Shown here piece by piece: positions 48,665-56,809 of a stretch of 64,000 bases of DNA. The DNA comes from Okamejei kenojei (taxonomy: Eukaryota), in NCBI GenBank assembly GCA_035221665.1, contig CM069174.1, forward strand, positions 7,564,001 through 7,628,000, read 5' to 3'. Position 1 is the first letter of the stretch; each line of letters starts with the position of its first letter. Both the position numbers and the translations under genes were made by a program. Under the pieces are notes generated by a model, which was not told the DNA's origin, made no database searches, and was given only the letters and a program-made list of their open reading frames with translations.

Positions 48665-48803
48665 GGAGTGGAAGACTGCAACCTTCACGTGGCCCGCCCT
48701 GTTTCGACTAATGCAATCAACTCGACGCGCACAAACAGAAGATCAAATAGAACAAGTCGTCCGACAACTTTAGGCTGTGCCCGCCACACGACAGAAGAAG
48801 AAG
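48665..48803 (+). mobile_element. Short non-autonomous Ingi/Vingi-type element with 5' HDV-like ribozyme (copy 1)
   Basis: HDV-like fold 48665-48717; (GAA)n tail; 12-bp TSD atccagtgtaca at 48653-48664 and 48804-48815. Confidence 0.8.
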
Positions 48804-49767
48804 ATCCAGTGTACAGATACATTGACAAAAGGGAATAATGTGAATAGCGTTTAGTGCAAGATAAAATCCGGTCAAAGATCATCCGGGGGTCACCGATGAG
48901 GTAGATAGTAGTTCAGGACCACTCTGGTTGTGGTAGGATGGTTCAGTTGCCTGATAACAGCCGGGAAGAAATTGTCCCTGAATCTGGAGGCGTGTGCGTT
49001 TTCACACTTCTGTACCTCTTGGCCGATGGGAGAGGGGAGAGGAGGGAATGGCCGGGTTGCAACACTCGATGTTAAACGCAGATGAATATGAAGAGGAGAG
49101 TACACGTCAGAATTTGTGCTGTGGCTGTGACCATGGCAGGTTAAGAACTAAATTAAACCAGGTGAGGTATATGGGCCCAGATTTTACATGGAGAGGTCAG
49201 CATTTACCTTTGCAACTTACAGTAGTTTATAGATGCAGCATGGAAACTGGCCCTTTGGCCCATCGGGCCCATGCTGACCATCGATCACGTGAATCCTATG
49301 TTATCCCAATTTCACACCCACTCCCGACACACTTGCGGCAGTTTAGAGAGGCTAATTAACCTAAAAACCCGCAGCGTGGGAGGAAACCGGAGCACCCGAA
49401 GGAAACCAACGTGGTCATGGGGGAACGTGCAAACTCCACGCGGACAGCACCCGAGGTCAGGATCGAACCCGGGCCTCTGGCGCTGCTACGGCTCTACCAG
49501 CTGCGCCACCGTGCCTGGTTCAAAACAGGTAAGTGCTGCTTAATGTTTCTCCTCTGAGTTTATTTCAATGTTTTGAGGTTCTTCCTGCTTTTTTCCAAAA
49601 CAAAATTAATAGCTTTTAACACATTAAATAGATTTTGAATACAGAATTATTTTAGCGAGGTCAAAATGTTGAGCGGTCCAGAAATACCTCGGTGCCTGGA
49701 AAGTCACATTAACGTGATGGGGCTGAGGTTCAAGGAATGTTTGTGATGGTGGTGCAGAGGTAATGGA

Positions 49768-49906
49768 GGGGTGGAAGATTGCAACCTTCACGTGGTCCGC
49801 GCTGTTTCGACTAATGCAATCAACTCGACGCGCACAAACAGAAGATCAAATAGGACAAGTTGTCCGACAACATTAGGCTGTGCACGCTACACGACAGAAG
49901 AAGAAG
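49768..49906 (+). mobile_element. Short non-autonomous Ingi/Vingi-type element with 5' HDV-like ribozyme (copy 2)
   Basis: HDV-like fold 49768-49820; same body and tail; TSD only approximate. Confidence 0.8.
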
Positions 49907-50889
49907 CAATTATGGAGTAGTAGCCTTTCACTGTGAATGCAGTGAGAGCCCTTTCCTTGCCGTTCTGGAGCTGACAAGTTGGTCTCAGTCTATTGGAGCC
50001 AGCATTGAGGAACTTAAAGAAGTCAGAGAAGATGCGTCGTCTGTTCGTGTACGCTGAGGTCCGGGCATGCGTGGGTGGCGGCTGCAAAGACAACTTCAGC
50101 CTGTTTAAGAAGGAACTGCAGATGCTAGAAAATCGAAGTTAGACAAAAGTGCTGGAGAAACTCAGCGGGTGCAGCAGCATCTATGGAGCGAAGGAAATAG
50201 GCAACGTTTCGGGCTGAAACCCTTTCGGGTTTCGGCCCGAAACGTTGCCTATTTCCTTTTGGGTTTCGGCCCGAAACGTTGCCTATTTCCTTTGCTCCAC
50301 AGATGCTGCCGCACCCAGTGAGTTTCTCCAGCGCTTTTGTCTGCCTTCAAACCCAGGCTTGTGATCTGGTGAGGAGATCGCCCTTGGCTGATGATGAAGT
50401 GGGGCCTCGAACGCTGCAAGGACCCGCTCTGCATGCACGGGTGGACCAAAATGATGCACGTGGCAGCCACACACGGGTCGCATGCGCAGCGACACATTCT
50501 GCACGTGCAGGCTTTACCTTTTGGGACATACGGCAAACACAGTGGGAATCCCTCCGACTTCTCAATCCATGCCCACCGCTCTCTCCAGCGAGAACTTGTT
50601 TGCAGACATTGATCACAAAAATACTATGTTACATGACACCATTTCTGGGGCAAATTGTTTTGACAGCCGACCAAACTAAGGGGAAGAGCTGAGTGTCTGT
50701 CAATGTTCTACGAGGCTATTGTTGCGGGTTAGAAACATAAAATAGGTTCAGGAGTAGTCCCTTTGAGCCAGCACCGCCATTCAATATGGTCATGGCTGAT
50801 CATCCACAATCAGTACCCTGTTCCTGCTTTTTCCCCATATCCCTTGATTCCGTTAGCCCCAAGAGCCATATCTAAACAGGAAAGCAGAC

Positions 50890-51635
50890 TATTATCTGAA
50901 TGGTGGCCGATTAGGAAAAGGGGAGATGCAACGAGACCTGGGTGTCATGGTACACCAGTCATTGAAAGTAGGCGTGCAGGGGCAGCAGGCAGTGAAGAAA
51001 GGGAATGGTATGTTGGCATTCATAGCAAAAGGGTTTGAGTACAAGAGCAGGGAGGTTCTACTGCAGTTGTACAGGGTCATGGTGAGACCACACCTGGCGT
51101 ATTGCGTACAGTTTTGGCCTCCAAATCTGAGGAAAGACATTCTTGCCATAGAGGGGGTACAGAGAAGGTTCACCAGACTGATTCCTGGGATGGCAGGACT
51201 TCCATATGAGGAAAGACTGGATAGACTCGGCTTGTACTCTACAATTTAGATGATTGAGGGGGGATCTTATAGAAACGTACAAAATTCTTAAGGGGTTGGA
51301 CAGGCTAGATGCAGGACGATTGTTCCCGATGTTGGGGAGGTCCAGGACAAGGGGTCACAGTTTAAGGATAAGGGGGAAGACCGAGATGAGAAAAACATTT
51401 TTCACACAGAGCGTGGTGAATCTGTTGGAATTCTCTGCCAGAGAAGGTAGTTGAGGACAGTTCATTGGCTATATTTAAGAGGGAGTTAGATGTGGCCCTT
51501 GTGGCTAAAGGGATCAGGGGGTATGGAGAGAAGGCAGGTACAGGATACTGAGTTGGATGATCAGCCATGATCATATTGAATGGCGGTGCAGGCTCGAAAG
51601 GCCGAATGACCTACTCTTGCACCTATTTTCTATGT
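50890..51635 (+). mobile_element. CR1 LINE 3' fragment
   Basis: QRDLGV...RPHLAYCVQFW...RGDLIETYK plus CR1 3' UTR. Confidence 0.9.
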
Positions 51636-52129
51636 AACTCTCTTGAAAATTGGATTGCTCTGGTTTCCTTTTCCTCCCTGCTCTGCCCCACCCCGATCCC
51701 GCAACCATTCCTATCGGGAATGATCCCATCATCATGGAGGGCCTCGGCTCCAGCTCATCCCAGAAGATGCGCAACAGAAGGGTTGCAGAAGGCGGCAGGT
51801 GAGTGCAAACGTCTGTTGAAGGTCAGCCACCAGCCACACAATCTAGGCCCTAAAATACATGAGTGAAACATTGGGGAAGTGTGGGAGTTCCATAACTGCT
51901 CAGGTACCTCATCTGCGATGGGTTCTCAGCTGCCCACTGAGGCTCTGCTGCCGATGGAGTACCTGATGGGCTGGGCAGATAGCTGTCCTGTGAAGTGGCA
52001 AGGCCCTTCCACTGTTTCTACTGGACTTGATGAATGGTCTCAAGATTCATTGTAGCATCCTGCACCCCTTCTCTGTTTTGAATCTTCTTGACCCAGGAAT
52101 TCCCACCAGCACGACAGAAGAAAATTTAG

Positions 52130-55077: not shown

Positions 55078-55380
55078 GGTGGCGCAGCGGTAGAGTTGCT
55101 GCCTCACAGCGCCAGAGACCCGGGTTCGATCCTGACCATGGGTGCTGTCTGTACAGAGTTTGTGCGTTCTCCCCGTGACCTGCTTGGGCTTTCTCCGGGT
55201 GCTCTGGTTTCCTCCCACACTCCAAAGACGTACAGGTTTGTAGGTTAATTGGCTTGGTATAAATGTAAAATTGTCCCCAGTGTGTGTATGTGGGATAGTG
55301 TTAGTGCGCGGGGATCGCGGGTTGGTGGGGACTCGGTGGGCCGAAGGGCCTGCTTCAGCGCTGTATCTCTGAACTAAAAC
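55078..55380 (+). mobile_element. HE1-like V-SINE, near full length
   Basis: tRNA head, V-core and CR1-like tail. Confidence 0.9.
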
Positions 55381-55711
55381 CAAACACTCAACAAGTCAGG
55401 CAGCAGCCACGATGCAGATGCAGGTTAGTTTAGTGTCATATACAGCAGGGTGCCACGAAATTCCTTGTCTGCATGAAGCCCACTGAGTAGACAGATACAA
55501 CAAGAAATACAATGACAAATGCAGAACAGCAGAAGGTTAGTCATGGAGCGAGAAAGAAGAGACTATCCTTGCATAGGCATCCCCACACCATGAGAAATCA
55601 CCCAGCAAAAATGCTGAGCCCCTCCACCCTGGAAAGGCAAGTGTGGGCAAGCTCGCAGAAAAAGCCAAGTGGTTTCAGTGGCGGATTTATAAAGAAGGAT
55701 AACTTCTGATA

Positions 55712-56056
55712 ACCCCATTCCGAATCCGACCTTTCTGCCCTGGGCCTCCTCCATGACCAGAGTGAGGCCCACCGTAAATTGGAGGAGCAGCACCTCATAT
55801 TTCGCTTGGGCAGTTTACACCCCAGCGGTATGAACATTGACTTCTCTAATTTCAGGTAGTCCCTACTTTCTCCTCCCCCTCAGCCCACTGGATCCACCTC
55901 TTCCTTTCTTCTTCCCGACCCCTCCACCCACCCTCACATCAGTCTGAAGAAGGGTCTCGACCCGAAACGTTGCCTATTTCCTTCGTTCCACACCCGCTGA
56001 GTTTCTCCAGTGCTTTTGTCTACCTTCGATTTTCCAGCATCTGCAGTTCCTTCTTA
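55712..56056 (+). mobile_element. Penelope-like 3' fragment; an oppositely oriented Penelope fragment lies at ~56170-56830
   Basis: HSESDLSALGLLHDQSEAHRKLEEQHLIFRLGSLHPSGMN (GIY-YIG C-terminus), then ctgaagaagggtctcgacccgaaacg. Confidence 0.85.
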
Positions 56057-56674
56057 AAAATAACTTCTTTATAGACTGGTATAAGCCGACTAACTCTTCA
56101 GAATAGGTTTTCGGCACCAATTATGTTCCGGACCCATTAAGTGGATAGGCTTTATTATGTTTAGTGCAGGAAGGAACAGCAGATGCTGGTTTAAACCAAA
56201 GATAGACACAAAATGCTGGAGTAACTCAGCGGGACAGGCAGCATCTCTGGAGAGAAGGAATGGGTGATGTTTCAGGTCGAGACCCTTCTTCAGACTGAGA
56301 GTCGGGGAGAGGGAAACGAGAGATATGGACGGTGATGTAGAGATATAAGACAAATGAATGAAAGATATGCAAAAAAAGTAACAATGATAAAGGAGACAGG
56401 CCATTATTAGCTGTGGGCTAGGTGAAAACCAGTTACAGTCAACGAGACTCAACAAGACAACTGAAACTGGTATGACTTGGGTGGGGGAGGGATGCAAGAG
56501 TTATTTGAAGTTAGAGAAGTCAATATTCATACCGCTTGGGTGTTAGCTACCCAAGCGAGGTATCAGGTGCTGTTCCTCCAATTTGCCTCTCACTGACAGT
56601 GTAGGAGGCTCAGGACAGAAAGGTCAGTGTGGCAACCGGGAGATCAAGTAGGCCCAGACGGACTGAGTGAAGGT

Positions 56675-56809
56675 GGGGCGGGAGATTGCAACCTTCACGT
56701 GGTCCACCCTGTTTCGACGAATGCAATCAACCTGGCGTGCACAAACAGGAGATCAAACAGAACAAGTTGTCTTACAACTTTAGGCTGTACACACCACACG
56801 CATGAAGAA
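56675..56809 (+). mobile_element. Short non-autonomous Ingi/Vingi-type element with 5' HDV-like ribozyme (copy 3)
   Basis: HDV-like fold 56675-56727; 14-bp TSD gactgagtgaaggt at 56661-56674 and 56810-56823. Confidence 0.8.

Follow-up and report, generated by a model that had tools for sequence, protein, structure and literature searches.

An internally deleted derivative of a Vingi-like LINE with a predicted P4-less HDV-like ribozyme head in Okamejei kenojei

What is a repeat of 135-139 bases composed of, and how could it spread? The question is raised by a 64,000-nucleotide stretch of the Okamejei kenojei genome (assembly GCA_035221665.1, contig CM069174.1, positions 7,564,001 to 7,628,000; hereafter the window), which carries three plus-strand copies of one such family, here called the mini-element. 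A prior reading of the letters alone (the sequence-only reading) had described three copies of ~135-140 bp as a ribozyme of the hepatitis delta virus (HDV) type joined to a tail borrowed from a long interspersed nuclear element (LINE) of the Vingi type at 32467, here LINE A. The copies are where that reading placed them, and the mini-element is indeed a dispersed, non-coding Vingi-type retroelement, flanked by target-site duplications (TSDs) and ending in a (GAA)n tail; it is not, however, a ribozyme joined to a borrowed tail. Both of its ends, together with junction intermediates, come from a second LINE (LINE B), and the mini-element is therefore almost certainly an internally deleted LINE B derivative, as judged by sequence comparison. 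The account that we favor, and hold to be fairly probable, is that its head, an HDV-like fold without helix P4, likely cuts the RNA before base 1 (G1), and that a Vingi protein copies the element in trans. The features concerned, by window position, are as follows.

32467 to 32766, minus strand: LINE A fragment, a 5′-truncated Vingi-like LINE end of 300 bp
48653 to 48664, plus strand: left TSD of copy 1, 12 bp
48665 to 48803, plus strand: copy 1, young subfamily, 3 helix mismatches
48665 to 48718, plus strand: predicted P4-less HDV-like ribozyme head of copy 1, 54 nt, from the fold parse
48665 to 48743, plus strand: segment of copy 1 from the LINE B 5′ end, taking in the first LINE B codons
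48764 to 48803, plus strand: segment of copy 1 from the LINE B 3′ end
48804 to 48815, plus strand: right TSD of copy 1
49768 to 49906, plus strand: copy 2, young subfamily, one P1 mismatch, TSD degraded
56661 to 56674, plus strand: left TSD of copy 3, 14 bp
56675 to 56809, plus strand: copy 3, older subfamily, CGAA in junction J4/2, one P1 mismatch
56810 to 56823, plus strand: right TSD of copy 3

LINE A was considered as the parent. The tail of copy 1 matches it exactly over 19-20 bases (32467-32486, minus strand), as the sequence-only reading had reported, and the last 13-20 bases are all that LINE A and the mini-element have in common. The exact LINE A-like tail is a minority form, present in 3 of the first 100 copies listed (counted by eye). 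Walking upstream along LINE A reached a fixed 5′ end, defining a 3.1-kb element with endonuclease and reverse transcriptase (RT). This end also adopts an HDV-like fold, with a match to our pairing descriptor (described below) in 8 of 8 loci, but its sequence is unlike the mini-element head, and LINE A was rejected as the parent on this ground. In the LINE A head (loci L151-L158), the P4 region is 37 bases long, G1 pairs with C, and P1.1 is a U-A pair; of 25 parsed LINE A copies, 19 begin with one of two P1 forms.

The mini-element tail was also found attached to other upstream sequence (59 matches), and two of 30 such matches retrieved are ends of LINE B, whose protein is ~26-56% identical to that of LINE A across tblastn pieces. 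Full-length LINE B copies start with the mini-element head and end with its last ~40 bases. LINE B thus has the same 5′ and 3′ ends as the mini-element, and supplies its bases 1-79 as well as the ~40-base tail that had been assigned to the LINE at 32467. Majority sequences of the LINE B ends were built from 11 copies (5′) and 23 copies (3′). The 5′ part of copies 1, 2, and 3 is identical to this majority at 71/79, 72/79, and 68/73 positions, and the 3′ part at 34/38, 37/45, and 33/37; against the LINE A majority, the tails agree at 15/16 (copy 1) and 13/13 (copy 2), with no match for copy 3. The 3′ segment comprises the final LINE B codons, the stop, a short 3′ untranslated region (UTR), and (GAA)n. 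Intermediate copies display the junction itself, with LINE B bases 1-80 followed by a 13-base, partly duplicated linker and the LINE B 3′ end; these comprise locus L228 in the genome and 26 contigs in each of sequencing runs X23 and X24.

LINE B is ~3.1 kb long, with a Pfam match to RVT_1 (E 9e-29) and a weak endonuclease match (E 0.011); LINE A features RVT_1 and a strong endonuclease match. No Pfam match to RNase H was found in 10 open reading frame (ORF) pieces of L352 and L151. Under the definition of Vingi as an APE endonuclease and RT in a single ORF without RNase H (PMC13708176), both elements appear Vingi-like, a name that rests here on domain architecture rather than on an RT tree.

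The mini-element is abundant. An exact 16-base core has 12,689 matches in the 2.76-Gb genome against 1 for a control pattern, and a 28-base tail pattern has 6,480 against 0. As 19 of 30 copies selected by tail carry the exact core, the family numbers ~20,000 dispersed copies, probably a low estimate. It was found in four further sequencing runs, and is hence common to other organisms. Within the window, identity to copy 1 is 93.5% for copy 2 and 84.8% for copy 3. Two nested insertions were also observed: a LINE A fragment with a 13-bp TSD inside an older mini-element (L039:1470-2110), and a young mini-element inside a decayed LINE B (L335:342-479).

The 5′ boundary of these copies lies at G1. 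Bases 1-3 are reached by 28 of the 30 tail-selected copies, and in three other genome-scale sequencing runs loose ends accumulate at G1, with unrelated flanks beyond. A second sample was selected by the core, taking 88 copies in order along one contig (C1) and removing 2 duplicates and 5 out-of-register heads; in the resulting 81 copies, element positions 13-28 are fixed by the selection itself. Setting aside a further 20 without a tail recognized by script, TSDs were resolved in 41 of 61 copies, compared with 2 of 183 shuffled pairings, and have a median length of 12 bp. In 28 of the 41 the TSD ends at G1 or enters the G run, while 13 end 1-4 bases earlier. The window copies agree: the left TSDs of copies 1 and 3 stop at G1, as the sequence-only reading had noted, with a one-G ambiguity in each, and copy 2 retains a TSD remnant of 5-6 bp. 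The base preceding G1 is T in 37/81 mini-elements and 15/25 LINE A copies, probably reflecting a target-site preference.

The head parses as a nested double pseudoknot from base 1. Helix P1 (bases 1-7/30-36) has 7 pairs, P2 (10-16/48-54) 7 pairs, P3 (17-19/27-29) 3 pairs, and P1.1 (22/37) a single pair; the unpaired parts are the 2-base J1/2 (8-9), the 7-base L3 (20-26), a linker (38-43), and J4/2 (44-47), which reads C-N-A-A. There is no P4 helix. Instead, six bases separate G37 from C44, which fits the minimal HDV-like subgroup. All 18 pairs can form in the family majority. The double pseudoknot of the sequence-only reading is supported, with its details revised: P1 position 5 is U rather than C (U5 in 78/81 copies, pairing with G32 in most copies and with A32 in LINE B), P2 has 7 pairs rather than 6, and J1/2 has 2 bases rather than the three of RAG. 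The putative catalytic C, at element position 44, falls at 48708, 49811, and 56718 as previously placed. The first in-frame ATG of the LINE A and LINE B ORFs (element positions 47-49) takes in the final A of J4/2 and runs into the 3′ strand of P2; this ATG is not present in element groups C-F, introduced below.

In 49 of the 81 sampled copies there is no mismatch over 17 scored pairs and the core is intact, such that the earlier statement that each genomic copy has 1-3 helix mismatches applies only to the window copies. With its three mismatches, copy 1 is likely a weak or dead ribozyme. Core positions are widely retained across the sample (G1·U36 in 68/81, C44 in 76/81, A46 and A47 in 81/81). 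Our pairing descriptor was composed after the heads had been inspected, and only its null rate counts as independent: none of 20 Markov resamples of the window yielded a match. In the window itself it detects copies 2 and 3 and nothing else, and in 240,023 unselected bases it matched once, on a mini-element copy.

Comparison between families supports the fold. Over six element families of this genome, pairing holds in 105 of the 108 helix cells, as against 45-57% in slid controls, and each family comparison with the mini-element yields 8-10 two-sided changes. LINE A is the unbiased member of this set, having been reached by walking from its 3′ end without structural criteria; relative to it, the mini-element head has equal helix lengths, 8 two-sided and 2 one-sided changes, and 0 broken pairs. 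All six family majorities retain the catalytic C and the two adenines of J4/2, and the majorities of the mini-element subfamilies differ at two positions within bases 1-54 (8 and 45), both unpaired. Moreover, G1·U36, U20, C22, A23, G25, and the one-pair P1.1 sit at the positions they occupy in the CPEB3 ribozyme (Rfam consensus; PMC4836649), and minimal ribozymes without P4 self-cleave in vitro (PMC10879173). These data suggest that the HDV-like fold of the head is very probably real, and intact copies would, with good probability, self-cleave 5′ of G1.

The favored account can be set out as a cycle. The element would be transcribed from a host promoter or by read-through, and self-cleavage 5′ of G1 would set the RNA's 5′ end. 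A Vingi protein would then recognize the LINE-derived 3′ end, with target-primed reverse transcription beginning in the GAA repeats. Inserted copies would subsequently decay neutrally, the fold being maintained in source lineages. The chance that the element lacks any internal promoter is, in our estimate, evenly balanced. The window holds no tRNA genes, an A box is absent from 81/81 sampled copies, and a strict B box occurs in 1/81 (at position 77), in agreement with the sequence-only reading; missing A and B boxes are, however, compatible with an internal RNA polymerase II promoter.

Several observations weigh against this account. A fixed 5′ end would equally be given by an internal promoter, and of 13 LINE B copies that extend into the head, 7 end 9-18 bases before G1 (by eye). 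Within the mini-element family, no covariation was detected among the 81 copies, and the support from covariation is confined to comparisons between families, of which families C-F were chosen by a CPEB3 model that favors P1 and P3 pairing. Paired head positions mutate like the body (29/888 vs 33/1406, P 0.19), and these substitution counts reveal no selection on inserted copies; neutral decay is expected for dead insertions where the fold is maintained in source lineages. A P3 A·C mismatch is common to 5/81 copies, and a source with a flawed P3 helix may therefore have spread. In 2 of 4 heads folded, the nested prediction is a competing hairpin of bases 1-36; nested folding, which cannot model pseudoknots, gives z-scores of 0.3-1.3 that are uninformative about the fold. 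Lastly, the head falls below every cut-off in an Rfam scan, with no Rfam HDV-like match in the window; RF02682 scores 16 bits against a cut-off of 44 (E 9), spanning exactly bases 1-54, a score seen in three intact copies among four loci scanned. Such early stops are frequent among LINE B copies (L387-L416), some of them next to LINE B pieces in inverted orientation, and set LINE B apart from LINE A and the mini-element.

An extension of the favored account, which the tail match of the sequence-only reading might suggest, holds that the young subfamily exchanged LINE B for LINE A as its driver. Older copies have tails of the LINE B form, those of younger copies approach the LINE A form, LINE B looks older than LINE A, and non-CpG divergence is 4.8% for LINE B (29 best of 43) and 2.8% for LINE A (29 best of 94), compared with 3.7% for older and 3.0% for young mini-elements. 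The nested insertions at L335 and L039 are in keeping with this. However, differences in how the samples were selected prevent a comparison of ages; few copies have the exact LINE A tail (3/100, as described above), young copies retain, upstream of the tail, ~30 bases of LINE B, and divergence from the LINE B majority is 1-2% in the youngest copies of LINE B. We regard this exchange as possible but doubtful.

A different explanation is that the head serves mainly as an internal RNA polymerase II promoter, with the start site setting the 5′ end and cleavage secondary or lost. Pr77, the head of L1Tc and NARTc in trypanosomes, is precedent for this, as the same 77 bases act as promoter and ribozyme (PMC3383444). 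Dispersed insertion suits an internal promoter, as does the spread of the P3 A·C variant (5/81). Retention of pairing and of the catalytic core across six families argues against it, and promoter and ribozyme roles can coexist. A weaker point concerns capping: reverse transcription of L1 leaves cap-templated extra G residues at 5′ junctions, a behavior not known for Vingi. A single additional G ahead of G1 occurs in 1 of the 41 TSD-resolved copies, which agrees with an uncapped RNA only on the assumption that Vingi, like L1, copies caps. We judge a head that is mainly a promoter to be improbable.

Slightly more improbable is that the pseudoknot is kept as a structure, in 5′ end protection, protein binding, or LINE translation start, with the P4-less form cleaving inefficiently. 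The R2 ribozyme fold has been described as cap-like protection (PMC13708176), the start codon overlaps J4/2 and P2 in families A and B, and P4 has shrunk to 6 bases. Yet the invariance of the catalytic C and both J4/2 adenines in the family majorities is the signature at odds with a purely structural role; family F shares the 6-base linker with different helices, and the cleavage of P4-less ribozymes in vitro (PMC10879173) counts against inefficiency. An ordinary tRNA-derived RNA polymerase III short interspersed nuclear element (SINE) with a chance ribozyme-like head, suggested by a TTCGA B-box-like core at position 39 (67/81 copies), short length, and the lack of a T4 run (72/81), is refuted, barring transcription by RNA polymerase III, by a head with 90% identity to the 5′ end of LINE B; the missing A boxes and tRNA and the descriptor null rate also count against it, and we give it almost no credence. 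A classical SINE with a tRNA, 7SL, or 5S head was likewise rejected, as the head matches LINE B and an A/B box pair is lacking.

Related heads were found elsewhere in the genome. Searching with the CPEB3 ribozyme model (RF00622), for which 59 of 141,138 candidates were scored, returned at least 42 matches, at least 30 of them over the cut-off (best 66.8 bits vs 35); none was found in the 14 control genomes searched. Thirty over-cut-off matches (L417-L446) form four sequence groups. At L422 and L442, a CPEB3-like head leads into sequence for a Vingi-like endonuclease and RT, with homology to the proteins of LINE A and LINE B. Over the first 41 bases, the best two heads agree with the Rfam CPEB3 consensus at 38 and 39 positions, as counted by eye. 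A second short element, of ~165 bp, makes up one group; it is TSD-flanked, GAA-tailed, and P4-less with a 6-base linker. It is represented by L438-L441, L443, and L445 (from about base 1512), with helices that differ from those of the mini-element, and starts with four G, such that its first P1 pair is a U·U with the flank.

As the helices could covary, this degree of identity favors common descent with the CPEB3 ribozyme over convergence, without fixing its direction or route. We put at about even the broader proposition that HDV-like 5′ ribozymes have radiated in the Vingi-type LINEs of this animal lineage, ranging from the 54-base P4-less form to CPEB3-like forms, that the mammalian CPEB3 ribozyme would be a domesticated Vingi 5′ end, and that minimal HDV-like ribozymes would not be confined to phages. 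The mammalian ribozyme has been dated to the placental-marsupial split (PMC8233481), in a paper whose consulted text contains no word beginning transpos, origin, or retro.

Elsewhere in the window, no host gene was indicated by Pfam in 80 scanned of 106 long non-repeat frames. A tandem array at 23205-23617 comprises about six 66-bp units from part of a common repeat, and self-comparison detected two imperfect palindromes, at 3357-3490 (about 134 bp) and 15103-15453 (about 350 bp), possibly small DNA transposons.

If this account is correct, ribozyme-headed, internally deleted LINEs extend from trypanosomes and R2 to a high-copy, dispersed animal family, and a P4-less ribozyme, a kind described to date almost exclusively in phages, is placed in a retroelement. 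Some 7,000 sites would keep the predicted fold if 49 intact among 86 sampled core-bearing copies is typical (extrapolated from the start of contig C1), and the effect of self-cleaving sites on host introns could be tested by orientation bias. The sister families offer a concrete candidate source of the CPEB3 ribozyme. Moreover, Vingi 5′ UTRs serve gene-insertion tools (PMC13708176), where self-cleavage at the 5′ end would bear on how templates are designed.

The general idea of ribozyme-headed LINEs and SINEs in metazoans is already known, some being reported to use HDV-like ribozymes (reviewed in PMC6765202). In the literature covered, which leaves supplements, Repbase, and Dfam outside its scope, no account of the mini-element family was found, a mention in Kojima 2011 or Ruminski 2011 being possible; nor was any report of a ribozyme heading a Vingi element or of a transposon from which the CPEB3 ribozyme derives. 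The portion consulted of a 2026 preprint on ribozyme discovery mentions neither Vingi nor SINEs. Non-autonomous Vingi derivatives such as Vingi-1_EE are known. Bipartite non-autonomous LINEs are an established class, and Vingi is one of four clades reported to yield them (PMC5786205); the same section of that paper does not name Vingi as a clade bearing 5′ ribozymes.

Among the nearest structural relatives are the minimal HDV-like and theta ribozymes, which likewise lack P4, open J4/2 with the catalytic C, and have a final A (PMC10879173). Nearly 99% of them are reported from Caudoviricetes phages, often beside tRNAs, whereas the mini-element fold heads an animal retroelement; the eukaryote check described in that survey covered human, mouse, and protists (PMC10879173). 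A theta ribozyme was rejected here, there being no tRNA in the window and the fold heading a retroelement. The CPEB3 ribozyme (RF00622) shares with the mini-element head its helix lengths and numbering through base 38, an identical 7-base L3, a one-pair P1.1, and G1·U36. The mini-element head differs in helix sequence, lacks P4, has no match to RF00622, and is multicopy, while the CPEB3 ribozyme is a single conserved intronic copy.

In architecture, the R2 short internally deleted elements (SIDEs) of Drosophila likewise fuse a 5′ ribozyme to a LINE 3′ end through internal deletion (PMC3414825), but are rare and site-specific in 28S rDNA, where the mini-element is dispersed and abundant. NARTc (from L1Tc) and RIME (from ingi) of trypanosomes are similarly short and non-coding, with both ends from an Ingi-group LINE; NARTc is 263 nt long, its first 77 and last 30 nt are common to L1Tc, and the Pr77/L1TcRz head of both is an HDV-like ribozyme that cuts at base +1 (PMC3383444; PMC4035085). 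The mini-element differs from NARTc and RIME in its length of 135-140 nt, its ~20,000 copies in 2.76 Gb, its (GAA)n tail, and its lack of P4, and its cleavage is a prediction only.

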